A stretch of 64,000 nucleotides of DNA, from assembly GCF_964194155.1 (NCBI RefSeq), contig NC_135881.1, positions 117,986,001 to 118,050,000 of the forward strand, given 5' to 3'. This stretch comes from Cetorhinus maximus (taxonomy: Eukaryota). The notes beneath the pieces were generated by a model. It did not search any database and was not told where the DNA came from. It saw nothing but the letters and a program-made list of their open reading frames with translations. This document shows, in pieces, positions 1,881-60,648 of this stretch; the stretch's first letter is position 1; every line of letters starts with the position of its first letter. A program made the translations under genes and the position numbers.

Positions 1881-3675
1881 CAGAAATAAAACCAGCAAAC
1901 AGTGGAAATATTCAGCAGGTCATGCAGCATCTGTGGAGAGAGAAAGAGGGCTTCATTGACCTGAAACCAATGGCCCAAATCTTCTGATATAGGAATAGGC
2001 CTCCGATTCAACTTATATCACTGATGCGCATCAGAACCCTGAAGAAGTCCCAACGTTCACACATTCGCAGTAGTTAAGCAGGAAGTTTAAAGTTCCGATT
2101 GCCAGTTTTACCCTGCCCGGATTGCTCCATGATGCCAATGACAGTGGGATCAGATGGCCAGAACCACCGAGACTTGGGCTTTTTACATGGATTTACTTAA
2201 GAGTTTTTCAAATCAGAGGCAGTGAAGCTCTAAGTAAATGAGCTGAGAGTCAAAGCATTCCAGCACCCACAGCAATGTTCAGCCAATGTCCTAGCAATGT
2301 TCACACCCCCTCTCATCAATGTTCACCTATCCCCCTCACCCAGCAATGTTCAACACCACCTCCCCACTTTGCGACAATGTTCACTCCCCCCACCCTTCCG
2401 CTGCCCCATCCCTTCCCAGCAATATTCAACCCCTGGCAATGTTCAACACCACCAACACCGCCACCAACCCCCCAAACCTTCCTCTCCCCCCCCTACCTCC
2501 ACCTACACTTTCTGACAATATTCACCACTTCCCATCCCATCCCAGCAGTGCAGCTGCACTCCCCCACCGTCCCCGAGATGTCACAGGATATTTTTACTGT
2601 ACATGGAAGGAGGAAAGAGTGATTATTGATTGTGCTTTAAACTCTGCTTCAGTCTCAGTTACTGTGCAGAACTTTCAGAGGGCCAGTGAATAAATGCTTA
2701 ACTGGGAGATGCTTGTCTGAGAAGGTATTGCCCAGATCACCTGCAAAATCACTGTATGGGTCAGGTCCATGTGGGGGTACAGTAAGAGGGATCGCCACTA
2801 TCTGTCCACCAATGCATTTGGGGGCTCAGGTGTGAGACAAGGAAGAGGGCCAATAATGTCACATAGAGCCAGGAAGCTGAGTTCAATGGGTGGTCGACTG
2901 ATTCAGTCACCCGTGCGTGTTCATCATCTCCCTCCTGACCATGCTCACCCCCCAACTCCCATCCTAGCAATGTCCAAATCCCCCCGGACTATGTTCACCC
3001 CTCCCACCCCCAGAGAGACCATGCTCACCCCCTCCTGCCCCTTGGACAGCACAGTGCTCACCCCCTCCCAAACACCCTCTCCTTCCAGAATCCCTGGCTC
3101 CTGTCTGACCAATGTTGGAAGAATCAGCATTGTCGGGGAATGCGGTGAGGGAGGCGGGGTTGAGCATTTTTGTGGAATGAGCTGGGGTGAATACTGTCTG
3201 GGGTGAAGTGGGATGGATACTATCAGGGGTGAGAGAAGGGGATTGAACATTGTAAGGGTGAGGGGGTGTTTGCAATGTCTGTGGGGTGACGCTGTGCAGT
3301 TTCAGAGGTTGATAGCTCCATTTAAAACAGTGTAGTCAATGATCAGAAGACAGACCTTAAGGGGCATGTCCTCAGTTCATAACAAGAAAAGGGGATATGA
3401 CTGTGCTGGAATTACATCCAAGAATTTGCCTCCCAACTCTGTTCGTCCCTGCATTCCTGCTGGAGCTGGCATCGGAAGGTGCAAAGGTTCCAGTGTAAAA
3501 TGCTAAGTGGCCAGTTTAAATCGTAGCCAGCATCAGATGCAGCCTGTCTGACACTGACCGGAAGATCTGGGCCATTAACTTTATGTCTTTCTTAGCAGGT
3601 GTTGCTTGCTGTGCTGATTTTTTCCCAGCATTTTTGTTTCTATTTTAGATTTCCAGCATTCGCAGTATTTTACTT
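1880..3675. mobile_element. Penelope-derived hairpin repeat (1880-1971 + 3574-3675) split by a MITE
   Basis: Left piece GGAAATATTCAGCAGGTCATGCAGCATCTGTGGAGAG...GACCTGAAAC and right piece ATTAACT...GATTTCCAGCATTCGCAGTATTTT match the layout of the intact copy at 36157-36411. Confidence 0.6.
1972..3573. mobile_element. Non-autonomous Harbinger-type element with internal CAATGTTCA arrays
   Basis: Imperfect TIRs GGCCCAAATCTTCTGA / CCGGAAGATCTGGGCC; flanks AAT and ATT; no coding capacity. Confidence 0.6.
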
Positions 3676-5007: not shown

Positions 5008-5605
5008 GAGGAGAATTTTCTCCCCGTCGGGCAGGAGAGTTGGGAGGGGGCACGGGTGGGCGCAAAGCCGATCGCCATTTTACGTGGGCGTGCCAATTAA
5101 GGCCCGCCCAGTGTGACGCACACCCGGAAGCGCTCAGCGCTACCTGTGCGGGCGGGGGGAGGAAGGAGAGTTGGGTCCTGCACTCTTTCACGTGCATGCG
5201 CACAAAAGAGCGCAGAAATCTCCCTGAGGCACAGAGCTGCCTCAGGGAGATTAATTTTGGTCGTAAAGAAAAAAAAATTAGTCAGACATGTCCCCTCATG
5301 TGACATTGTCACATGAGCTGTGACATGTTTATGAATTTTTACAAAACATTTTTTTGAATTAATAAACCCTTCATGAAACCTCATCCCGCCCGTGCATGAG
5401 GTTCCATGAAAAATGCGAAGGTCGTCTGGGCTCTTCGCCTGCTCGCCAACCTTAAGGTTGGATGGGCAGCCCTGACAAGTACTTTAATTAGTTGAGTAAT
5501 GGCCTTAAAAAGCCTTTGACAGCTCGGTGGGCATGCAGCGACACAGGTGCGCGCCCGCCAAACTGAAAATCAGAATGACACGTGGTGACATCAGGATGCG
5601 CGCCT
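5008..5605. mobile_element. Harbinger-type MITE, truncated; same family as 24131-24798
   Basis: Collinear similarity to 24131-24798 (e.g. CCATTTTACGTGGGCG.GCCAATTAAGGCC, TGTCCCCTCATGTGACA.TGTCACATGAG). Confidence 0.7.
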
Positions 5606-5656
5606 GAGGAGAAACAGAATTAGTGTTTCAGGTCGATGGCCTTTCATCAGAACTGA
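5606..5656 (-). repeat. Penelope pLTR fragment with degenerate minimal hammerhead motif
   Basis: Minus strand reads CAGTT-CTGATGA-A-AGGCC-ATC-GACCT-GAAA-CACT-AATT; the core is intact but the ACGT palindrome is lost. Confidence 0.6.
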
Positions 5657-5729
5657 AATCTTTGTTTATTAAACACACATTTAGTTCCAGGCTTATGTGG
5701 TTAAAAGATTACCTTTTTTTCTCCCATTT

Positions 5730-8700
5730 CATAAGAACATAAGAAATAGGAGCAGGAGTAGGCCATTCAGCCACTCAAGCCTGCCCACCATTCACTAAGA
5801 TCAAGGCTGATCTGCCCAGGCCTCAGCTCCTCTTTCTTGCCAGCTCCTCATAGCCCTCAACTCCCCGATATTTCAAAAATTTATCTACCTCCTCTTTAAA
5901 TACTTTCAGTGATCTAGCCTCCACAACTCTCTGGGGTAGAGAATTCCAGACATTCACTACCCTCTGAGAGAAGAAATTCCTTCGCATCTCAGTTTTAAAT
6001 GAGTGTCCCCTTATTCTGTAACTATGTCCCCTAGTTCGAGATTCCCCCACTTGTGGAAACATCTTCTCAACATCTACCCTGTCAAGACCCCTCAGAATCT
6101 TGTACGTTTCAATAAGATCACCCCTCATTCTTCTAAACTCTAATGAATAAAGGCCTAACCTGCTTAGCCATTCTTGATATGTCAACCCCTTCATCCCAGG
6201 AATCAGCTGAGTGAATCTCTTTTGAACTGTCTCCAATGCCAGTATATCCTTTCTTAAATACGGGGACCAAAACCGTACACAGTACTCCAGGTGTGGCCTC
6301 ACCAACACCCTGTACAGTTGTAACAAGACTTCCCTATTTTTAAACTCCAACCCCCTAGCAATACAGGCCAAAATTCCATTTGCCTTCTTAATTACTTGCT
6401 GCGCCTGCATGCTAACCTTTTGTGTTTCATGCACAAAAACACCCAGATCCCTCTGTTCTGCACATTTTTGGAGCCTCTCTCATATAAATAATAGTCTGCC
6501 ATTTGATCCTTCCTACCAAAGTGCATGACCTCACACTTTCCTACGTTAAAATCCATCTGTCAAGTTTTTGCCCACTCACTCAACCGATCTATATCCCCTT
6601 GCAGATTCCTTATGTCCTCATCACAACATGCCCTCCCACCTATTTTTGTATTGTCAGCAAGTTTGGATATATTATACTCTGCCCCCTCCTCCAAGTCATT
6701 AATATAGATAGTAAATAATTGAGGCCTGAGGACTGATCCTTGTGGTACTCCACTAGCTACGTCTTTCCAACCTGGAAAAGACCCATTAATCCCGACACTC
6801 TGTCTTCTGTGTGTTAACCAATCCTCAATCCATGCTAATACATTACCCCTGATACCGTGAGCTCCTATCTTGTGCAATAACCTTTTATGTGACACCTTAT
6901 AAAATGCCTTCTGGAAATCCAAATACATTACAACTACCGGTTCCCCTTTATCAACTCTGCTTGTTATATCCTCAAAGAACTCCAGCAAATTTGTCAAACA
7001 TGATTTCCCTTTCACAAAACCATGTTGACTCTGTTTGATTGTGTTAAGCTTTTCTAAATGTCCTGCTATTTTTTCCTTGATAATGGACTCTAGCATTTAC
7101 CCAATGACAAATGTCAGGCTGACTGGCCCATAGTTTCCTGCTTTTTGTTTCCCTCCCTTCTTGAACAGGGGCGTCACATTAATGGTTTTCCAATCCGGTG
7201 GGACCCTCCCGGAATCCAGTGAGTTCTGGAATATTTCAACCAATGCCCCCACTATCTCTCCAGCCACTTCCTTTAAAACCCTTGGATGCAGGCCATCAGG
7301 TCCTGGTGACTGGTCTGCCTTTAGTCCCATTAGCTTGTCAAACACCTTGTCTCTCATGAGACTGTAACAAGATCTTTCCTCCCATTAGCTCCTTGCTTAT
7401 CTGGTATCGTTAGGATGTTTATAGTGTCCTCCACTGTGAAGACCGATTCAAAATATTGGTTTAAATTATCTGCCATTTCCTTGTTCCCTGTTATCAATTC
7501 TCCAGTCGCATCCTCCAAGGGTCCCACGTTCACTTTAACTACTCTCTTTTTATATATCTGTAGAAGCTCTTGCTGTTTATTTTTATATTTCTTGCCAAAT
7601 TACTTTCATAATCAGTTTTCTCCCTCTTTATTAGCTTTTTAGTCATCAGCTGCTGGTTCCTAAAATATTCCCAATCCTCTGGCCTGCCACTAGTTTTCAC
7701 CACTTTATATGCCTTAGTTTTTGATTGGATACTCTGCCTGACCATCTTTGTTAACCACAGGTGGTTCAACCTTCTTTTTCATCATTTTTTTTGACCGGGA
7801 TAAATTTTTGTCCAGCTTTATGAATTATCTGCTTAAATGTCTGCCATTGCTCATCCACTGGCCTTCCCCTTAGTCTATTTTCCCAGCCCGCTTTAGACAA
7901 CTCTTTCTTCATATCTCTGTAATTTCCCTTATTTAAGTTGAGGACACTGGTTTGAGACCCGATTTTCTCACCTTCAAACTGAATTTGAAATTCTACCATA
8001 TTGTGTTCGCTACCCCCTAGAGGACCCTTAGCTACGAGATCTCTTACTAATCCTACCTCATTACACATTACTAGATCAAAAATAGCCTGTTCCTGGATAG
8101 GTTCTGCAAAGTATTGCTCTAAGAAACAATCCCTGACGCACTCTACAAATTTGTCTTCCATGTTACCCCTGCCAATCTGATTTGTCCAGTCAATATGTAG
8201 ATTAAAATCACAAGTGACAATTGTAGTGCACTTCTTAAATGCCTCCATAATTTCCTGATTTATAAATTGTCTTACAGTGAGGCAACTCTTAGGGGGCCTA
8301 TAGACAGCTCCCACCCGTGACTTCTATCCCTTGCTATTCCTTATTTTCACCAAAACTGATACCACATCACAATCTATTGCACCTATATCACTATTCATCA
8401 CCACACTGATATCTTCCTTTATTAACAAAGCTACCCCACCTTTTCCTTTTTGCCTATTTTTCCGGAACGTCGAATACCCTTGAATATTGAATTCCCCGTC
8501 TTGGCCACCCTGCAACCACGTCTCTATAATAGCTATCAAGTCATATTCATTTATTTCTATTTGGACCATAACTCATCTATCTTGTTACAAATGCTGTGTG
8601 CATTCAGATAAAGAGCCTTAAGCTTTGAACTTTTACAATTATTACTCACCCTGGTTCTAATTTCTGCTGCACTTTTCTGCTTATATTTTCTGCCTCTTCC

Positions 8701-9470: not shown

Positions 9471-10952
9471 GTCATTTTCTCCTCATCATGACTTCTCTCC
9501 AAGAAATTTACTGTTCACCAAGGTCAGCCTTTTCCAAGTTTTTATCAACACGGCTTTGGGACAAAATCGCAAAAATGGTTGACACGGAATTGTCTATTCA
9601 ATAACAGAGTTGCTGAGGTGATTTACTCACAAGTTACCCAGGTTGTGTTTTGTAAAGCTCAAGATTAATGTTGAAAACTAAAGCATTTGGAAAGCTATAT
9701 TTATATTTCCCACATAACTTATGAGCATTTAAAAACTTTCATGAATTTTGAGACTCCTGAGCGAATTAAAAATGTTGGCAATAACAAACAGCGGTCCGTT
9801 CTCCCTTTATTGCAGCATCTGGTTACCTCTAGCAAATTTTCCCATAATTTTTTAGCTAAAATTAGAAACTAAAAGCCCAGGGAAAAGTGAAGGAGAATCC
9901 ATACTCACCAATCTGTGGTACCAAAGCACATTACCAAGAGTCATTCTTTAGGCCAAAATTATTTGTACATATCGAAAATGTAATACATGCCTCGGAGGGA
10001 GTTGAAGGCTGTACCTGATCTTGGGGCTTAGCTATTGTTCGTTTGTGAATTCCTTTTTCAGATTATCTGCCAGAGTTTCTCCAGGCATCGTCTATATACA
10101 AATAAATTGAGGAGAAAATTGATTCCATAGTGTATCCTTACAATCTCCATTTAGTTAGCCTTGCCTGCTTATCCTTGCCTGAATACAGCTGTTCTAAAGT
10201 TCCATAGGGGATTTGCACTAGCTGAAATATGGTTGTAGCATGCAAAATGATATCATGCCACCCCTGAACATCAGTACAAAGTCTCTTTTGCACTGTGGTT
10301 AACCTTTATGAATTTGCACTCTAAAAGTGCAATTTAAAAAAATCTACCCTTCTGGTTTAAATTCTTGTGCCCTTTAAATGTCCTGTGCAAAAGCAACAAT
10401 GTAAATTTATTTACTCTAGCTATTTTGATAGGAATCAAGATTCTGACTTCATGATATTGGTTTAAGGATCACACATCATTACAAGCCAGAAATGCTTGTT
10501 TATTAATCATGCATATAATACAGTGTATCAAGGAAGACTGAACCTTTTACAAGATGAGGCTTTGAGATATCTCAAGTGCTACCTACACAGGTGCCTTATC
10601 ACCTAGGTACTAAGGATGATTGGGTGGGTTCTGGTATGCATGTCCAATCCTTATCCCCAGATTTTCTGTCCAGTGCTCTTGCCAGGTGAGGGACAGTATT
10701 AATCATTATTTACAAAGGCATGGATTAATTAAGGACAGTCAGCACAGATTTGTTAAGGGAAGCTTGTGTCTGACTAGCTTGATTGAATTTTTTGAGGAGG
10801 TAAATGTGGGCCGGGGGGCATGATTAAGAATTTTGCAGAAGATGTAAAAATTGGATGTGTGGTTGAGAGTGAGGATGAAAGCTGTATGCTGAAAGAGGAA
10901 GCAGTTGAGATAGTGGATAGGTTAACAACTGACAAAGAGAGATATTAGAAAT

Positions 10953-11069
10953 AACAGCAAAATACTGCAGATGCTGGAAATCTGAAACAAAAATAGCTGG
11001 AAAAGCTCAGCAGGTCTGATAGCATCTGAGGAGAGGAATACAGTTAATGTTTCGAGTTCGTATGACTCA
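10953..11069 (-). mobile_element. Short truncated Penelope-derived insertion with 13-bp TSD
   Basis: AGATATTAGAAAT is duplicated at 10940-10952 and 11070-11082; the insert matches the PLE repeat (GCAGATGCTGGAAATCT...CTCAGCAGGTCTG...CAGTTAATGTTTCGAG). Confidence 0.8.
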
Positions 11070-15224: not shown

Positions 15225-17965
15225 TCAAAAATAAAAACAGATAATGCTGGAAATACTCAGCAGGTCAGGCAGCATCTGTGGAGATCCATCGTAAGGTCAG
15301 AAGTCAGGATGTTCGCTGATGATTGCACAATGTTCAGCACTATTTGCAACTCCTTAGATACTGAAGTAGTCCATGTCCAAATACAGAAAGACCTGGACAA
15401 CATCCAGGCTTGGACTGATAAGTGGTAAGTGACATTTGTGCCACACAAGTGCCAGGCAATGGCCATCTCCAACAGGTGGGAATCTAACCATCATCATTCA
15501 CCAACTATTGAAATTCAATGGCATTACCATCGCTGAATCCCCCACTATTAACATCCTGGGGGTTACCATTGACCAGAAACTGAACTGGACTAGCCATATA
15601 AATACTGTGGCTACAAGGGCAGGTCAGAGGCTAGGAATCCTGGGGCAAGTATCTCACCTCCAGACTCCCCAAAGCCTGTCCACAATCTACAAGGCATAAT
15701 TCAGGAGTGTGATGGAATACTCTCCACTTGCCTGGATGAGTGCAGCTCCCACAACACACAAGAAGCTTGACACCATCCAGGACAAAGCAGCCCACTTGAC
15801 TGGCACCCCATCTGCAAACATTCACTTCCTCCACTGATGTACAGTGGCAACAGTGTGTACCATCTACAAGATGCACTACAGAAACAGACCAAGGTTCCTT
15901 AGATATCACCTTCCAAACCCATGGCCCCTACCATCTAGAAGGGCAAGGGCAGCAGATACATGGGAACACCACTGGAAGTTCCCCTCCAAGCCACTCACCA
16001 TCCTGACTGGGAAATATATCACCGTTCCTTCACTGTCGCTGGGTCAAAATCTTGGAATTTCCCCCCTAACAGCACTATGGGTGTTCCTACACCACATGGA
16101 CGGCAGCAGTTCAAGAAGGCAGCTCACCACCACCTTCTCAAGGGAAATTACAGATGGGCAATAAATGGTGGCCTAGCCAGCGAAGCCCACATCCCCTGAA
16201 TGAAAAAAAAGCGTTAACATTTAAGGCTGATGGCCCTTCATCAGAACTAAGGAAGGATAGAAATGTAATAGGCTTTGAGCAGCTGAAAGGGAAGAGGAGG
16301 AGAGGAAGAACAAAAGGAAAAATCTGTGATATGGTGGAGGACAGGAGAGATTAAACAATCAAAGCTTGCATGGTGCAAAAGCCAAAGGGAGTGGTAATGG
16401 GTGTAGTAAAGAAACAAAAGACATGTCTAGATGAGGTGTGAATGGCTGCATGGCAGCCGTCAGAATGCAGAGTGAAGGAATAAAGAAATAAATGAGAAAA
16501 AGCTGAACCAGCGAACATAAAAAGAAACAAAACCGAGGCAGAGGTTATGGTCTTGTTGAACTCATTGTTGAATTCATTGTTGAGTCCAGAAGGCTGTAGA
16601 GTGCCAAGATGCAAGGTTAAGTGCTGTTCCTCAAATTTGAGTTGAGCTTCATTGGAACACTGCAGCAGGCCATGGATAGAAAGGTCAGAGTGAAAGCAAG
16701 GTGGAGAATTGAAATGACAAGTGACAGGAAGCTCAGGGTCATGCTAGCAGACTGAATGGAGGTGTACAGCAAAGTGTTCACTCATGCTGCGTTTGGTCTC
16801 CCTGATGTGGATGAAACCACATTGAGAGTAGCGAATACAGTATATTAAATTGAAAGAAGTACAATAAGTCACTGTTACACTTGGAAAGAGTGTTTGGGGT
16901 TTTGGATAGTGAGAAGGGATGAGGTGAATGGGCAGTTGTTGCAACTTCTGTGCTTGCATGGAAAGGAACCATAGGATAGGGAAAAGATGTTGGGGGTGAC
17001 TGAGGAGTAGACCAGGAAGTCATAGAGGGAATGATCCTTTTAGAATGTTGAAAGGGGAGAGCAGGGGAAGATGTGTTTGGTGGTACATGGGATCACGCTT
17101 GAGGTGGTGAAAATGGTGGAGTATAATCCATTGGATAAAGAGGCAGAACATAGGATGAAAGCTGGGGAATGGGGGAACCATCATGGTTCTGGAAAGAAGG
17201 AGAAAAGGTGATAGCAGAAATTGAGAAAGTTCAATGGGGCAGAGACTGGCTGAAATGATGGGTCAACCTAGGCAATCCTGTTTCTGGATTTTGGGAAGGA
17301 GGTAGAAGTAGGCTGTACATATGTGGGGGATTATGAGGCCGGAGGCTATGGGGGGAATATCTCCAGCGGAAATGAGATCAGTGACAATCTGGATAAAATA
17401 GCTTGATGTTCGGTCGTGGTGTCATGGTCGAGGGTGAGGTAGGAGAAATTGTCTGAGAGTAGACCTTCGGCTCTGCTAGTTAAAGACACCAGGCAATCAA
17501 GGAACCACCCTTGTCAGCAAATTTGACAATAATATTAGGGTTGGACCTGAGAGAACAAAGTGCTACATGTTCAGAGGAAGATAGGTTGGAGTGAGTGAGG
17601 GGAGCAGAGAATTTGAGACATCCAATGTCATGCCAGCAGTTCTCAATGAAAAGATCCATAGAAGGTGAAGGGCCAAAGGGAGGTGTCCTGGCAGAGGAAG
17701 AATACTAGAGATGGGTGAAAGGGTCCGCTAACTGGAGGGAAGACTCTGGCCAAAGAAGTGAGCACAGAGGTGGAGGTGACAGAATAAGAGCTCCATTTCA
17801 TGCCAAGTTCGAAATTCACTGAGGTGAGGGCATAAGGGAACGAAGCTGAGACCTTTGCTGAGGACAGATCATTTAGAGTCAGAGAGGGGAAGGTAACAAT
17901 CAAGAGCTGCTTAACATGGGAACTGTAAACATTTGGTCTGGAACAATGCCAACAACCATCAACTT
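15225..17965 (-). mobile_element. Penelope-like retroelement (Neptune-type), internally deleted, pLTR split by a LINE
   Basis: Minus-strand translation gives VLSKGLSFVP (~17850), LRSNPNIIVKFADKGG (DKG motif, ~17530), GIY-YIG remnant NLIYCIRYSQCGFIHIRETKR (~16800) and HLGTLQPSGLNNEF; degenerate hammerhead motif at 16212-16249. Confidence 0.85.
15285..16210 (+). mobile_element. 5'-truncated non-LTR retrotransposon (CR1/L2/Jockey group, distinct from the main CR1 family)
   Basis: MFADDCT, LGVTIDQKLNWTSHIN, MEYSPLAW, LDTIQDKAA; ends AATAAATGGTGGCC...TGAATGAAAAAAAA. Confidence 0.85.
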
Positions 17966-31004: not shown

Positions 31005-32612
31005 GACACGAGTAACATCCCCAATGTTCAAGAGAGTTGGGGGGCAGAGGTGAGTATGGTGGCCATTACCAAGGAGAAGGTGCTAGGAAAACTGAAAGGT
31101 CTGAAGGTGGATAAATCACCTGGACCAGATGGATTACACCCCAGAGTTCTGAAGGAGATAGCTGAAGAGATAGTGGAGGCGTTAGTGGTGATCTTTCAGG
31201 AATCACTAGAGTCAGGGAGGGTCCCAGAGGACTGGAAAATCGCTAATGTAACCCCCCAGTCGTTGGTAAGATTTTAGAGTCCATTATTAAGGATGAGATT
31301 TCAGAATACTTGGAAGTGCATGGTAAAATAGGGCAAAGTCAGCATGGTTTCATCAAGGGGAGGTCATGCCTGACAAATCTGTTAGAATTCTTTGAGGAGG
31401 TAACGAGTAGGTTAGACAAAGGAGAGCCAATGGATGTTATCTACTTGGACTTCCAGACGGCCTTTGACAAGGTGCCACACAGGAGGCTGCTCAGTAAGAT
31501 AAGAGCCCATGGTGTTAGAGGCAAGGTACTAGCATGGATAGAAGATTGGCTGTCTGGCAGGAGGCAGAGAGTGGGGATAAGGGGGTCCTTCTCAGGATGG
31601 CGGCCAGTGACTAGTGGAGTTCCGCAGGTGTCAGTGTTGGGATCACAACTTTTCACTTTATACATTAATGATCTAGATGAAGGAACTGAGGGCCTCCTGG
31701 CTAAGTTTGCAGATGATACAAAGATAGGTGGAGGGACAGGTAGTGTTGAGGAGGCGGGGAGGCTGCAGAAGGATTTGGACAGGTTAGGAGAATGGGCAAA
31801 GAAGTGGCAGATGGAATACAACGTGGGGAAGTGTGAGGTCATGCACTTTGGTAGGAAGAATAGAGGCATAGACTATTTTCTAAATGGGGAGAGAATTCAG
31901 AAGTCTGGAGTGCAAAGGGACTTTGGAGTCCTAGTCCAGGATTCTCTTAAGGTTAACTTGCAGGTTGAGTCGGTAGTTAGGAAGGCAAATGCAGTGTTGG
32001 CATTTATTTTGAGAGGACTAGAATATAAAAGCAGGGATGTGCTGCTGAGGCTTTATAAGGCTCTGGTCAGACCACATTTAGAATATTGTGAACAATTTTG
32101 GGCCCCGTATCTCAGGAAGGATGTGCTGGCCCTGGAGAGGGTCCAGAGGAGGTTCACGAGAATGATCCCAGGAATGAAAGGCTTAACATATGAGGACTCT
32201 GGGTCTATACTCGATGGAGTTTAGAAGGATGAGGGGGCATCTGATTGAAACTTACAGAATACTGAGAGGCCTGGATAGAGTGGACGTGGGGAAGATGTTT
32301 CCATTAGTAGGAGAGACTAGGACCCGAGGGCACAGCCTCAGAGTAAAGGGAAGACCTTTTAGAACAGAGATGAGGAGAAACTTCTTTAGCCAGAGTGGTG
32401 AATCTATGGAATTCATTGCCACAGAAGGCTGTGGAGGCCAGGTCATTGAGTGTATTTAAGACCGAGATAGATAGGTTCTTGATTGGTAAGGGGATCAAAG
32501 GTTACGGGGAGAAGGCAGGAGAATGGGGTTGAGAAACTTATCAGCCATGATTGAATGGCAGAGCAGACTCGATGGGCCGAATGGCCTAATTTCTGCCCCT
32601 ATGTCTCGTGGT
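31005..32612 (+). mobile_element. 5'-truncated young CR1 LINE (RT + 3' UTR)
   Basis: ORFs 31050-31277, 31310-32224 (304 aa: QHGFIKGRSCLTNL, YLDFQTAFDKVPH, FADDTK) and 32190-32459; ends CCTATGTCTCGTGGT. Confidence 0.95.
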
Positions 32613-32954
32613 ATTATTCAATCTGACTGGTTAAGGAGGTACACAGCTACCTGCCCTTTACACGTCACTGCATTTTTAGGATGGTTGACTGAACACAACT
32701 TGTTCAAATTACCATAGTAAGTCCATGGGCCAGTGCATGTCCAGCCATTTGTTTCACATTCAATATGGTCTATAATGTTCAGTGCTTGTGATTGAAGTAT
32801 GTATTTATGTTTTATCAAGTGACAATTTTTATTTCACTGCCTTTTGTATTTTGTCACTTTGAAATGAGTGCCTTTTCAGAGAGGGAGACTCTTTCGAGTT
32901 ACCAACAGTCACAGATTGCAACTTCTTTCGAGTACAATCACAGTTCTTGGTTTT

Positions 32955-34850: not shown

Positions 34851-36156
34851 TGAAGTTTAATTCCCTTCCTAACAGCACTGTGGGTGTACCTATACCACAT
34901 GGACTGCAGCGGTTCAAGAAGGCAGCTCACCACCACCTTCTCAAGGGCAATTAGGAGTGGTCTAAATCCCCACTGACCCAAAACTGAACTGGACCAGCCA
35001 CATTAATACTGTGGCTACAAGAGCAGGTCAGAGGCTAGGAATCCTGCCGTGAGTAACTCACTCTTGACTCCCCAAAACCTGTCCCCTATCTAGGCACAAG
35101 TCAGGAGTGTGATGGAATACTCCCAACTTGCCTGGATGAGTGCGGCTCCCACAACACTCAAGAAGCTCAGCACCATCCAGGACAAAGCAGCCTGCTTGAT
35201 TGGCATTCCATTCACCACCTTAAACATTGACTCCCTCCACCAGGAATGCACAGAGGCAGCAGTGTGTACCATCTACAAAATGCACTGCAGCAATTCACCA
35301 AGGCCCCTTTAACAGCGCCTTCCAGCCCCGTGACCTCTAACACTTGGAAGGAAAAGAGCAGCAGATGCATGGCAATACCACCACCTCCAAGCCACACCCC
35401 ATGTTGACTTGAAAGTATATGGCCATTCCTTCACTGTTGCTGGATCAAAATCCTGGAACTCCTGTAAGAATTTCCATTCCTGTCCCCTCTTACAATAGTT
35501 CTTGGACTCCAGGAATTACGAGAACAAAATGCTCGCGACACAGGGTTTGGCTCAACCTCAGACTCATTTGCTTATTGAACTCACAAATTCCCTCCACTAC
35601 AAAACCCTCTGTGATTTGACCAGAATTAACAGCAGTATCTCATAGTACAAACCCCGATACAAAAGGTTGACTGAAATTTACAAAATACCTCACAACACAA
35701 ATCCCTTGCTGATTTAGGTGAAAATTAAAATCACCCACACAACTGGCTGTCCCCGGTGTTGATTGTGGGCCTGGATGTGGAAATGACCGATCCCCATCCT
35801 TCTTCTCCTTGACTGCGGTGTCTGCTCTCCAATGTTGTCCACTTTTATGATGATTCATATCACACTGTCACAGGCACAGATCCTGTTACCATTCTGCTGA
35901 GTCGTCCAATGCTTCGCACCTCTTTACCTTGGGTTATTCAATGCCCTGTTCTAGACAGGACTGTATGGTCATAGTCAATTCTTCTGCTGTTTACACAACA
36001 GAAAACAATGTGCTCCCCTCCCCATGGTGAGGGCTACCTGGCTCCAAGGTTGACTGAGGTGTGAATGTTCCTTTCATTCCTGGCAGGAGCTAATTGGGTT
36101 ATGTAATGGCAGTTTCTCTGTGCCATTGTCCATGACAATGGCTCTCTTAGTCTCTT

Positions 36157-36411
36157 AAACAAAACAAAAACAGAATTACCTGGAAAAACTCAGCAAGTCT
36201 GGCAGCATCGGCGGAGAAGAAATCAGTTAACGTTTCGAGCCTCCATGGCCCTTCGGCAGAACTGCCTGCCGAAGGGCCATGGAGGCTCGAAACGTTAACT
36301 GATTTCTTCTCCGCTGATGCTGCCAGACTTGCTGAGTTTTTCCAGGTAATTCTGTTTTTGTTTTGTTTTGGATTTCCAGCATCCGCAGTAGCTTTTAGCT
36401 TTTTGTTTTTA
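36157..36411. mobile_element. Penelope-derived inverted-repeat insertion, 14-bp TSD, 103-bp hairpin
   Basis: TCTCTTAGTCTCTT at 36143-36156 and 36412-36425; arms 36157-36259 and 36266-36368 differ by one base. Confidence 0.9.
36224..36264 (-). ncRNA. Candidate minimal type I hammerhead ribozyme (A6C core variant)
   Basis: CAGUU-CUGCCGA-A-GGGCC-AUGGA-GGCUC-GAAA-C-GU-U-AACUG: stem I CAGUU/AACUG, 5-bp stem II, ACGU palindrome in place of stem III. Confidence 0.55.
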
Positions 36412-38235
36412 TCTCTTAGTCTCTTGTTGAGCCAGAGTTTCAGTTAGCTCCCCCTCTGTGAGTTACAGTTAACCCCTTAATGGCTGATCAGTTCACCTCT
36501 GCGTGCAGTTTTGAGGTTTAGCTGTTTTATATTCTTACAGCTCGGGGGTCATGTCCTTCACTCCCTTCCTAATAGCAATGTGGGTGTACCTACCACACAT
36601 GGACGGCAGTGGTTCATGAAGGTGGCTCACCACCACCTTCTCAAGGGCAATTAGGGGTGGGAAATAAATGCTGGTGTGGCCAGCGATGCCCAAATCCCAT
36701 GAAAGGATAAATAACAAAAAACAAATCCAATTCAGTCTTGGATGACTGCATGAAGCACTTCTGCATTACTGTAAGAGTTTATGACATCATCAAAAACATA
36801 CAAGTGTGTTACAGATTTACAGGTCTTTCTATCTGTTACTTAGTTCATCAATGACCAGATCACACATGTGAATACATTATGGAGAGATCACATCTTCCAA
36901 CTTTTTAAAAGTCCAATGTAGCAGACAGCTTTATTGCAATGTATGCCATGCAAATTCAATCTGGAAAAAAAAGCTGTTTCTGCTGAAGTTCATTGTCAAG
37001 TGATAGGAGAAAAGTAAAATAGCAATTGAATAATGTTCCTCAACTATTCCAAGAGGGCTCCTGCTGTAACTTTAGTGGAAGCCCACTGGAATTGCTGTAA
37101 ACTTAGCTGGGACCCTGTTGAACTGGGTCCAGGCTGCAGGACAAATTTTCTGGGATGGTCTGTGGGGAGAGAGTCACCAAATGTAGCTAAATGTAATCTC
37201 TGTGAAGAAGTGGTGTCATCCTAAATCAGTAGTTCCCATGACCTGGCATCATCAGTGTAACCTTGGAGGCTGGTACATGATGAACAGGGATGTATTGGTG
37301 CAATAAAGATCTCGAGCTGAAGCACACCTCAACCAGGACGATCCAGGCCAAAGAAACAATTTGTACCCTGAAGACTTCTAGTAGAGAAACTACTTTCTTA
37401 ATGTCTTGTCAAATATTTGGGCACCAATGTTCCTGTATTGCAAAGTGGGTCACAATAGTCCTTCTGAATCTGGAATCCAGACGCCCAATTTCCTGGAAAC
37501 TTGGGGAGGGCGGGCATCCAAGATGTGAGCAACGGTCTCATGCTATTTAGGTGCCCTCCCTCAGCCCCTTATTTTCTGGTGGGATCAGTGTTAGAGGAGA
37601 AATTGCTTTGACCATGGCCTATAGAATTTCAGACATAAGCCTTCTGATACTCTTTATAAATAAACACACATAGATTGAACCTGTAGTCATCACTGAAAAT
37701 TACTATTTTACAAAAAAAAGTTAGTCGAAAAAAATTAGCTGGTAAATGCAGAATACACACTCAAGCATTTTGGAATGTTTTGCCTTAACTATGGCATAAG
37801 AATAGCATAAGTCAATTCATGGGTAACTAATATGTGCTAGTTTTACACTAAAACCAGTACATGTGAGTGTCCTTGATCTTTACGCAGCTTTAAAAGGAAA
37901 TCTTTTTGTGGAGGCGGGAAACTAAATTCATATTTTGCATCAGACTTCACGAGAGAAAAGATGCTGTCAATATAGCAGTGAAGGAGGAGGGCAGTGGAGA
38001 AAGTTGATTGGATAAAATAGAAAAAAGAGGCATTGAAAAAAATCACCCTGTCTCGGTGGGATGTGGGATGCATCCCCGGTCGTTGAGGGAAGTAAGGGTG
38101 GAAAATTTGGAGATCCTGGCAACAATATTTTAATACTACTTAGATATGAGAGTAGTGCTGGAGGTCTGGGGGTTTGCAAATGTTACACCACACTTCTAAA
38201 AAGAGGAGAGGGATAAACCTCGCAATTACAGCACC

Positions 38236-48041: not shown

Positions 48042-48280
48042 GTCAGTGCTTCTTTTGTGTCAACAGTGAGTGGCAACTGGCATTTAAAATGTGCATGCCC
48101 ATGGAAAACCACTGAACACATCCTTCTTTACTCAAGCATGAGCTTAATAAACTTAAAGTGAATCTGAACCTGGCAGTTTGCATTGAAAAATAGTTCATAT
48201 TTAACATAAAATAAAAATAGAAAATGCTGGAGATATTCCAGCGGTCTGGCAGCGTCGGTGGAGAAAGAAACAGAGTCAAT

Positions 48281-54507: not shown

Positions 54508-55866
54508 AGGCTGTATTTTCCCGATTCAACAGATCCACCTCGGTAGAAAGTATTCCTTCAGATCCCGTTTTCGCTCTGGGGGAGCCGAGGTGTGATACAG
54601 TTGGGCCCACCACCACCAGATGCAGAACAGAGGTGGCCACAGGGGATGCCAAATGTTGAGATGAGCTGATTAAAAGGCCGGCTCGGTTCTTGGGGACTTT
54701 GTCTCAGTTGTTTCATTAAATTTTAGGCTTTCTAACCCTCACCCCTCATACCAGCATTGACTCCCCAAGCCACCACCATACCCTCCTACCAACTTAATGC
54801 CAACCCTTGCACCCCACCCACCGCCATGGTTCCTTATAGCCCCCTGCCAACATAAGGCCAACTCATGCCAACCCATACCACCCTTAGGCCTTACACCCTC
54901 CATGCCAACTCAACCAGTATTAACCATGGACAGACTTCAGGAGTCATGTTGAGATTAAACAAAATAAAGGTCTAAATTCCTATCACAATCTTAACTATAT
55001 GAAAAAAGCTCCCACTCATGAAAGCCCATTCAAAACTTCTAAATCTCCTCAAGTGCTTAATCTCTTTCAAATATAAACTTCTATTCATAAACCTACATCA
55101 AAGACAGTTAATTGTTTGATAAACACTTTCAGCTGTCAATCAAACAGTGAACTTAGGACACCCCTTCTGACATAATTATAGCTTTTGGAAAACAACCAAC
55201 TGTCACAATGACATAATGATGGCACTTGGGAAAATGTCAACAAACAACTATTGTCACTCCTAGAACAGAGTTATTTGAACTCTCACTGACATCGGTAACC
55301 TGTTTTTTTTTAGTTTTTAAAGGGCTGGGGAATTAAATAATTTCCCAAAATGACAGTTCTACAGATCTTATCCGCCCTTCAAGAGCATTTATGTCTACTC
55401 TAAAAATTTGTGACTCCCACACTGCGGGTTGAGGCCCTTGTTACAGTGAAAATGCTGTTCGTTTGAACTCAGCACTGAAAGCTCTGAAAGCTGAAAGAGA
55501 GAAAACTGAAAGCTGCAGCACAGAGGGATTTGGGGGCCCTCAGGCATGAATCACAAAAAGCTAGCATGCAAGTTCAGCAGGTAAAAGGGAAGGCAAATGG
55601 AATGTTGGCCTTTATTTCAAAGGGAATGAAGTATAAAAATAGGAAGGTCTTGCTAAAACTATCCAAGGCACTAATTAGACCACACCTAGAATACTGTGAA
55701 CAGTTTTGGTCCCCTTATCTAAGGTTTTCTCTCATGTCTGAAGCACACCCTGCCATTTTCTACCACCGGAGAAGATCTGTTGTAAAAGGAGGCGGCACTT
55801 CCACATGCGGGTCCTGCCATTTTTAAAAGTCCACAGAGTCTCCATAAGTCCGCAAAATTCCAGGCC
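54508..55866. mobile_element. Non-autonomous Harbinger-type element containing a CR1 fragment (55500-55725)
   Basis: Termini AGGCTGTATTTT / AAAATTCCAGGCC; internal similarity to the reverse complement of 61362-62720. Confidence 0.6.
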
Positions 55867-56412
55867 TAGATGTTTGAAAACTCTTCAGGCTTGTTTTTCA
55901 CATTTGTGCGATGATTTGCCAGCTCCTTGAAAGCTATCGAATCAGTCCCACTCCACCATTTCTCCATAGCTCTGCAAAGATTTCCTTTTTAAGTATATGT
56001 TAAACTCCCTTTTGAAAGCTACTATTGAATCCGCTTCCGCCACACTCTCAGGCAGTGCATTCCAGATCACAACAACTCGCGACATAAAATAAATTCTCCC
56101 CATCTTGCTTATGGTTCATTTGCCAATTTCATTAAATCTGTATCCTCTGGTTACCACTCCTCTTACCAGTAGATATTGTTTTTCCTTATCTACTCTATCA
56201 AAACCCCTCCCAATATTTTCTCATGTTCCTGGTACCATTTTGGTAAATTCTCTACCTTGCTTTCCTCCTTAAGTCACTTCTTAAAATCTATTTCTTTAAC
56301 CAAGCTTTTTGTCATTTGACCTAATTATTAATTGTATCAATTGATATTAAGTGCATTCCGGTGCAAGGCATTGATTGGATGCTACTTGAGCACACGTAAA
56401 GAGACACGTAGA

Positions 56413-57920
56413 TCTTGTGACACTGTGGTAACATTCCTACCCATGGGCCAGAAGCTCCAGGTTTAGGTCCCACTTCAGGACTTGATGGCCATGGAAGGTG
56501 TGTTCATAATGTGGCCATTCAGGTGGATTATCAGCCTATAAATCCTCCCAGCATGCCTGATGGCAGGCACTAAGAGCAGGAGAGACTCCATAAGACCAAA
56601 AGATGTAGGAGCAGAAGTAGGCCATTCAGCCCATCAGGTCTGCTCCGCCATTCAATGAGACCATGGCTGATCTGATAGTCCTCAATTCTACTTTGCTACC
56701 TTTTCCCCATAACCCTTGGTTCCCTTATTGATTAAAAATCTGCCTATCTCAGCCTTGAATATACTTAACGACCCAACCTCTACAGCTCTCTGCGGTAAGG
56801 AATTCCACAGATTCACTACTGAGAGAAGAAATTCCTCCTCATCTCTGTCTTAAATGGGTGACCCCCTTACTCTGAGATTATGCCCACTGTTCATAGACTC
56901 TCCCCCAAGGGGAAACAACCCCTCAGCATTTACCCTGTCAAGCCCTCTAAGAATCTTATATGTTTCAATAAGGCTGCCTCTCATTCTTCTAAACTCCAAT
57001 GAATACAGGCCCAACCTACTCAACTTCTCCACATAAGAAAATCCATCCATACCCAGGATCAACCTAGTGAACCTTCTCTGGACTGCCTCCAATGCCAATA
57101 TATCTTTCCTTAGATAAGGGGACCAAAACTGATCACACTATTCTAGGTGTGGTCTAATTAGTGCCTTGTATAGATTTAGCAAGACTTTCCTAATTTTATA
57201 CTCCATTCCCTTTGAAATAAAGGCCAACATTTCATTTCCCTTCCCAATTACCTGCTGAACTTGTATGATAGCTTTTTGTGATTCATGCATGAGGGCACCC
57301 AAATACTCTGTGCTGCAGCTTTCTGCAGTCTTTCTCCATTTAAATAATATTCAGCTCCTCTATTCTTCCTGCCAAAGTGCATAACCTCACATGTTCTCAC
57401 ATTTTATTCTGCCAAGTTTTTGCCCACTCACTTAACCTGTCTATATCCCTCTGTAGACTCTTTGTGTCATCCTCGCCATGTGCCTTCCTACCTATTTTTG
57501 TGTCATCTTCAAACTTGGCAATAGTACATTCACTTTCCTCATCCAAGTCATTAATATATATTGTAAATAATTGTGGTCCCAGCACTGATCCCTGTGGCAC
57601 TCCACTAGTTACAGGTTGCCATCCTGAAAATGCCCCCCTTATCCCAACTCTCTGTCTTCTATTAGTTAGCCAATCCTCTATCTATGCTGATATACTACCC
57701 TCAACACATGGGCTCTTATCTTATTAAGTAGCCTTAGGTGCAGTACCTTATCAAACGCCTTTTGGAAATCTAAATATATTACATCTACTGGTTCCCCTCA
57801 GCCATGCTATAGAAGGCAACGGCAAACCACTTTAGTACTTCGCCAAGTATAATCATGGACTAATCCAGTAGAAGTCTATGGCTGCCAATGTCCTCTTATG
57901 GCATGGTACCTGAAGAAGGA
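56413..57920 (+). mobile_element. tRNA-derived SINE with RTE-like 3' part, split by a CR1
   Basis: Head GTGGTAACATTCCTACC...GGTTTAGGTCCCAC at 56413-56590; tail GAAGGCAACGGCAAACCACTTTAGTACTTCGCCAAG at ~57810-57850. Confidence 0.5.
56590..57798 (-). mobile_element. 5'-truncated CR1 LINE
   Basis: ORFs 57397-57600 (PQGSVLGPQLFTIYINDL...FEDDTK) and 56850-57098 (VQRRFTRLI...LYSLEFRRMRG). Confidence 0.92.
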
Positions 57921-60259: not shown

Positions 60260-60648
60260 ACATAGGAACATGGGACTTAGGAGCACGAGTAAGCCATTCG
60301 ACCCCTCAAGCCTGCTGCGCCCTTCAATAGGATCATGGCTGATCTGGTTGTGATCTGAACTCCACTTTCCTGTCTGCCCCCCATAATCCTTAACTCCCTT
60401 GTCTATCAAAAATCTGTCTAACTATGCCCTGAATAAATTGAATGACCCAGCCTCCATTGCATTCTGGGGAAGAGAATTTCACAGACTAAAGACCCTCTGG
60501 AAGAAAAAATTTCTCCTCATCTCCATCTTAAAAGGGAGATACCTTATTGTTAAACTGTGCCCCCTAGTTCTTGCCTCCCCCATGAGTGGAAACATCATCC
60601 TTGTATCTGTCCTATCAAGTCCGCCGGGGATCTTATATGTTTATAGGA
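60260..60648 (-). mobile_element. CR1 3' end
   Basis: CATAGGAACAT tail and 3' UTR/ORF2 C-terminus collinear with 5730-6110. Confidence 0.85.

Follow-up and report, generated by a model that had tools for sequence, protein, structure and literature searches.

A 255-bp hairpin carrying a hammerhead motif lies in the Cetorhinus maximus sequence analysed here, a stretch of 64,000 nucleotides that we call the window, and it raises a double question: is it a small mobile element in its own right, as an earlier note made from the sequence alone proposed, or a piece of something larger, and what does its variant ribozyme core imply for the element that produced it?

The insertion and its parent element

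The unit occupies positions 36157-36411 (255 bp). Its two 103-nt arms (36157-36259 and 36266-36368) carry a single mismatch (36210/36315) and are separated by 6 nt, and a 43-nt tail (36369-36411) directly follows the second of them. As the 6-nt loop is itself templated pLTR sequence (-6 to -1 relative to core C3), the left arm measures 109 nt and the join falls at 36265/36266. From left to right, we distinguish: the left target-site duplication (36143-36156); a tail-less, inverted arm on the minus strand (36157-36265; pLTR -6 to +102 relative to core C3), which matches the parent pLTR of the full-length copy L061; the head-to-head junction of two truncated copies (36260-36271), situated within a family hot spot discussed below; a tailed arm on the plus strand (36266-36411; pLTR 0 to +145), whose one-sided tail is a signature of Penelope-like elements (PLEs) and is explained in PMC11167929 as the stretch between two reverse-transcription start sites; and the right duplication (36412-36425), an exact 14-bp repeat of the left one. 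The complete minimal type I hammerhead motif with C at position 6 (C6) lies on the minus strand at 36224-36264 and reads CAGUU-CUGCCGA-A-GGGCC/AUGGA/GGCUC-GAAA-CGUU-AACUG, with the predicted cut between 36229 and 36228; its assignment draws on the sequence, and also on stem pairing and one compensatory pair among 44 distinct family sequences. The plus-strand core begins at 36266 and lacks the 5' strand of stem I. The earlier note had described this anatomy, from the 14-bp duplication and the arms with their one difference to the CUGCCGA core and its incomplete plus-strand counterpart, and every item is present.

Single contigs of X5 (organism B) and of X9 and X10 (organism C), which come from three studies, join position 36142 to 36412 and hold one copy of the duplicated bases, while X1 contigs (organism A) span both junctions of the filled site. 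The insertion is therefore real and postdates the split from those relatives, which bears out the recent mobility that the earlier note had suspected, and the 14-bp repeat is a true target-site duplication. Folding of the transcript of either strand gives a predicted duplex of -204 kcal/mol with both cores buried, so that RNA from 36157-36411 is expected to close into a 103-bp duplex and to stay uncleaved. A search of the whole window against Rfam gave no hammerhead match at E<=1, and the Rfam matches at the unit itself (MIR5534 and htlv_FSE) stay under their gathering scores and reflect the hairpin. Taken singly, the locus is a real, young and ordinary PLE insertion without sign of function.

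The parent can be named. L061 is a full-length copy organized as pLTR-ORF-pLTR. Between its pLTR and the right arm there is a single difference over 146 bases; relative to L061, the sole arm mismatch is a C-to-T change at a CpG in the right arm. Intact ORFs of 917 aa are found at five loci (L063, L091, L097, L102 and L123); the protein matches RVT_1 above the Pfam cut-off and GIY-YIG just under it (E 6.5e-4), and the Penelope origin put forward in the earlier note thus rests on an identified coding element. With a single ORF of reverse transcriptase and C-terminal GIY-YIG domain between pLTRs, the parent has the organization of EN+ PLEs. The L063 ORF also has, upstream of GIY-YIG, a CX4CxxC linker (CPRRRCNTC) that fits the CX2-5CxxC motif assigned to Neptune and Nematis in PMC8557442, and judged by its predicted protein the parent is an autonomous Penelope-like element, probably of Neptune type. 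The best named relative of the protein, with 69% identity, is from Chiloscyllium punctatum, as suits a shark host; some 185 nt separate the hammerhead core from the ORF start. Arm lengths in the family form a continuum from 0.1 to 3.3 kb that reaches the full-length coding copies; the 255-bp unit represents the short extreme of the head-to-head, 5'-truncated insertions made by this autonomous coding element.

A search of the genome with the unit returned 1,040 candidates, of which 40 were scored and match the whole unit at 94-100% identity; since this sample is biased toward query-like copies, we turned to pattern searches. With a 26-base pattern from the core, 903 matches were obtained in the genome, many of them arranged as inverted pairs with spacings of 13 nt to 4 kb, and a 35-base pattern downstream of it gave 6,655. 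Duplications of 12-16 bp flank 28 of the 30 closest loci fetched (two of the 30 being the same locus), and duplications of 9-16 bp were found at 60 of 61 scorable hairpin loci, a further 28 of the 89 being unscorable by our script. One hairpin with both arms tailed (L006/L011, G000:C5:116003575-116003877) gave no duplication with the script. Another locus (L144, G000:C1:45239308-45244109; also L040-L042) is a head-to-tail array of four 267-bp units, each running from pLTR -16 to about +250 and comprising hammerhead, tail and ORF start of the same family; it is a retrozyme-like tandem, able in principle to form hammerhead dimers.

The window holds other repeats as well. The insertion is adjoined by a very high-copy short repeat (36562-36711) that recurs at 16056-16208 and 34859-34960. 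Broken ORF pieces of a related PLE, with 62-71% protein identity to the parent, lie on the minus strand at 16582-17892, and older related pLTR fragments, 75-82% similar, at 10938-11056, 15226-15284, 1881-1945, 3612-3672 and 48208-48270. The minus strand also has a canonical CUGAUGA hammerhead-like motif near 5650, and LINE-like fragments of reverse transcriptase and endonuclease occur at 5075-8323, 31259-32617, 55500-57800 and 60261-60642. No host-gene Pfam domain was detected among the 17 of 28 long frames of the window that were scanned.

The variant core and its activity

The C6 core is a property of the lineage and not of this copy: it is present in 84 of 85 readable family cores and in the pLTRs beside intact ORFs, and a genome-wide search with the stem II of the query gave 3 non-C matches against 903 stem II matches. 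Older sister families yield 22,716 matches, and the first 100 of these, counted by hand, comprise 75 U6, 19 C6 and 6 A6 cores; a slightly relaxed A6 pattern matched 1,392 times, for the most part in one family with a different loop. The C6 family thus belongs to a lineage of more than 20,000 arms in which U or C predominates at position 6. In a tree of 93 pLTR rows, drawn from its midpoint on few columns and with a bootstrap that is not fully settled, the cores follow one another like the rungs of a ladder: the A6 family, then U6, then a C6 group whose stem II has a U-A pair, and last a C6 group with C-G in its place. The earlier note had read the core as an A6C change at family level that predates the inversion. 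Family level and age stand, and position 6 likely changed from A to U and then to C inside an older lineage, not by a direct A6C step.

Stems I and II and a minimal palindromic stem III, and hence the minimal type I hammerhead fold recognized in the earlier note, are all present. Across 44 distinct sequences 96.3% of the stem cells are paired (pairs counted directly), and the variable pair of stem II is C-G in 22, U-A in 21 and U-G in 1, a double change that was likely a single event. The canonical CUGANGA core is absent on account of C6, and in the 44 sequences the remaining core positions show little or no variation, a constancy that is partly imposed by the search patterns. The hammerhead fold thus appears to have been maintained after the loss of A6. 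A further C6 subfamily of several hundred arms (L274-L303) has a GUC cleavage triplet and a GUGAG loop, which means that H17 also varies (C or U) among the C6 subfamilies.

By analogy with other ribozymes, the C6 change likely makes the hammerhead cut slowly, yet the lineage kept spreading. The C6 hammerhead of phage Bcep176 is described in PMC3088659 with a kobs below 0.1 per minute, and according to PMC7151607 an A6C change strongly lowers the rate in magnesium, with a more than 10,000-fold difference of manganese over magnesium in another ribozyme. We looked for a footprint of cleavage in the genome: 11 of 100 arm ends fall exactly at +31, the predicted cut site, against 3.5-4.5 expected (global p 0.0007-0.006, local p 0.007-0.064), the count having been 17 of 100 before the missed GUC subfamily was included. 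An independent pattern check of the same span, counted by hand, gave 8 rows at +31 against 6 at +30; the 926 matches of that pattern are dominated by the GUC subfamily and are not a tally of cut-site ends. The small excess suggests that some templates may be cut.

It is accordingly possible, if on balance doubtful, that hammerheads with C6 or U6 retain a useful level of cleavage in vivo, helped by the protein of the element, by dimer formation or by manganese. The global test speaks for such activity, as do the conservation of the other core positions, discounted for what the search patterns force, and the stem II change from U-A to C-G that apparently took place on a C6 background; so do the protein-assisted cleavage reported for PAc (PMC11167929) and the activity of the Bcep176 C6 hammerhead with manganese (PMC7151607). 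The local p values, the fall from 17 to 11 and the near-equal counts of the independent check weigh on the other side.

cDNA stops and the origin of the hairpin

When hairpin centres were counted genome-wide in 31-nt intervals, the interval immediately before the core held 477, one placed further upstream 104 and one around the cut site 158, this last interval having a different anchor and one extra subfamily, so that the three counts share no exact common denominator. The pile-up just upstream of the core argues that the template was mostly uncut. We also sorted 99 arms by eye. Read-through past -45 is seen in 61, and the other 38 were scored as truncated; leaving aside three template misfits and four calls from a single tandem array, the truncated ends comprise 17 at -15 to -1 and 14 at +8 to +50, and one of these 14 coincides with the predicted cut site (+31). 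The ends peak at -8 to -4. The hot spot spans some 12 nt and is no absolute wall, given the 104 loci with centres beyond it. The same centres occur in older families at 2,578 loci, with U6 and A6 cores among them; the hot spot is therefore independent of C6, and a C6-derived microhomology as the source of the hairpin centre is ruled out.

We regard the 5' end of the RNA as the likeliest cause of the hot spot. The hot-spot sequence of the subfamilies matches BBCABW, which we take to be the initiator consensus, and is in this sense Inr-like. An internal promoter is described for the Penelope of Drosophila virilis (PMC2377424). No clear cap-G signature was seen at the hot spot. The alternative, which we think unlikely, is a site of processing or stalling instead of a transcription start, where a conserved YAG that opens stem I serves as 3' splice acceptor or a protein is bound. 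A pyrimidine tract and YAG stand just before UUCUG in all families, with CUAAC upstream in some, the D. virilis intron ends at helix I (PMC4209133), and full-length copies do read through the hot spot; however, most ends retain the AG and thus lie upstream of the would-be splice junction, and no stable structure is predicted upstream. The 15 of 39 joints shown from four possible RNA runs included no GT..AG joint there, which counts weakly because only contigs were available.

For the pairing of the arms we scored 31 head-to-head pairs from the first 100 matches of the downstream pattern on contig C1. Exactly one arm is tailed in 28 of the 31, and the 5' ends of the two arms lie within 20 nt of each other in 16 (2.8 expected by shuffling), or in 5 of 19 when long pairs only are taken (0.75 expected). 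The 3' ends fall into two groups, at about +95 to +110 and +145 to +150 (counted from core C3), and those of tail-less arms cluster in the first. In the pooled samples, both arms are of the same four-site subfamily type in 67 of 72 pairs against 13.8 expected, the five discordant pairs differing at one site each. Among 50 hairpin centres, 44 are distinct. Both arms thus derive from one source, with a centre made anew at each insertion. Among older head-to-head pairs, the arms of L269 and L270, and of a few more listed, differ at position 6 (U versus C), unlike the concordant arms of the young family.

Our preferred reading, to which we give a probability of about 0.8, is that the hairpin is a head-to-head pair of 5'-truncated pLTR copies, likely made in one event from an uncut template by priming on both target strands. 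The GIY-YIG domain would nick the two strands 14 bp apart, and the reverse transcriptase of the element would prime both cut strands in the same event. cDNA would start at two sites about 45 nt apart, here +102 and +145, as in the anole element in vitro; both cDNAs would run off near -6, likely the RNA 5' end, just upstream of the uncut hammerhead; and end-joining would link the two run-off cDNAs into a hairpin. The C6 ribozyme, predicted to be slow in magnesium, would be dispensable for insertion, its fold being retained. Two observations sit less well with this scheme. The upstream pLTRs of six near-full-length tandem copies begin at -653, -358, -252, -227, +35 and +87, and none near -6, so that a linear RNA from -6 cannot be the sole template and read-through, strand transfer or circles are needed; and the concordance of the arms is also compatible with the fold-back of one cDNA or with two RNAs from one locus.

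Fold-back self-priming, in which one cDNA halted near the hammerhead would turn back on itself at a short CAG/CTG repeat, be copied into the second arm and then be joined to the second nick, has been proposed for PLE palindromes (PMC3846280) and would account for the near-symmetric ends of 16 of the 31 pairs and for the concordant arm types. We hold it to be quite unlikely here, as the other 15 pairs are asymmetric with the longer arm on either side, both mirror forms of one centre occur relative to the tail, the clustered ends of tail-less arms fit a second priming site, and extension of both strands was demonstrated in vitro (PMC11167929). The proposal of the earlier note, a non-autonomous, retrozyme-like 255-bp unit transcribed, self-cleaving and copied whole, has become extremely improbable and gives way to a doubly truncated insertion of a coding element: the roughly 1,040 candidates, with 94-100% identity in the 40 scored, the long duplications and some recurring centres (4 of 50 identical) speak for it, but 44 of 50 centres differ, the recurring form spans several subfamilies and both orientations, arm lengths run without a break up to the coding copies, no head-to-tail array of the unit was found and its RNA would be a locked duplex. 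Placement among the non-LTR retrozymes was rejected as well, the hammerheads of the unit being an inverted pair only and not head-to-tail units, and so was propagation as a fixed non-autonomous form, on the distinct centres and the continuum.

Meaning and comparison with known systems

A broader view, which we offer as speculative and rather improbable, is that a large vertebrate PLE lineage has run through many subfamily generations without A6 (A to U to C), with the fold and some weak cleavage retained, and that its thousands of hairpin stubs are run-off 'strong-stop' cDNAs. Synthesis would be primed at the 5' pLTR-ORF junction and continue as far as the start of the RNA, a short way before the ribozyme; to yield a full-length copy, a strand transfer at the pLTR would be required. 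If so, the genome would hold a record of steps that are missing from the described PLE cycle. This family bears on the function of the PLE hammerhead and on the assembly of inverted and tandem insertions. It offers a young autonomous element with intact ORFs, a natural series of A6, U6 and C6 cores and hundreds of junctions that mark cDNA stops, which together make these questions testable in an in vitro system like that of PAc.

Within the literature searched, mostly the main texts of open-access papers, no description of C6 or U6 cores in a PLE lineage came to light, and none of two-strand priming in PLE genomic copies. The layout of inverted pLTRs with a tail and the A6C variant have each already been published (further background is given in PMC6765202 and PMC6155905). 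Closest in layout are the Pen2a_Av insertions of EN+ PLEs (PMC3846280; scheme in PMC8557442), which share the head-to-head inverted 5'-truncated copy, the one-sided tail, the target-site duplication and partial tandems; here, both arms are of about 100-150 bp, the tail measures 43 nt against 30-40 in those insertions, and the centres pile up just upstream of the hammerhead at hundreds to thousands of loci.

The mechanism has been studied in PAc, the Poseidon of Anolis carolinensis, whose protein, a predicted dimer, cuts and extends both strands, with two adjacent internal start sites that define the tail and mostly uncut RNA as template (PMC11167929). The likeness to the insertions studied here extends to all three of these features (adjacent internal starts, extension of both strands and an uncut template), and from it we infer that both-strand priming from two internal sites may operate here also. 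Compared with PAc, the shark parent has the CX2-5CxxC linker of Neptune and Nematis, which Poseidon lacks, its ORF begins past the core and not within stem II as in PAc, and its core is C6.

In the hammerhead itself, the family agrees with the metazoan PLE minimal type I motifs described in PMC4209133: an extra base between A9 and G10.1, a G10.1-C11.1 pair, a palindromic minimal stem III and a short stem I. Position 6 is C or U here, whereas the variant named in that description is U3-A8. The Bcep176 hammerhead (PMC3088659, PMC7151607) shares the natural A6C core change as a single phage motif with measured low activity in magnesium, whereas here the change is a sequence feature, fixed throughout thousands of retroelement copies in a vertebrate. 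The animal non-LTR retrozymes (bioRxiv 10.64898/2026.07.22.740005) are likewise non-coding, PLE-derived and equipped with a type I hammerhead, but they are described as head-to-tail tandem units, whereas ours is an inverted pair built at insertion. Seen against these systems, the hairpin is not a new kind of element; its variant core and the mapped cDNA stops of its family are useful for the mechanism of PLEs.
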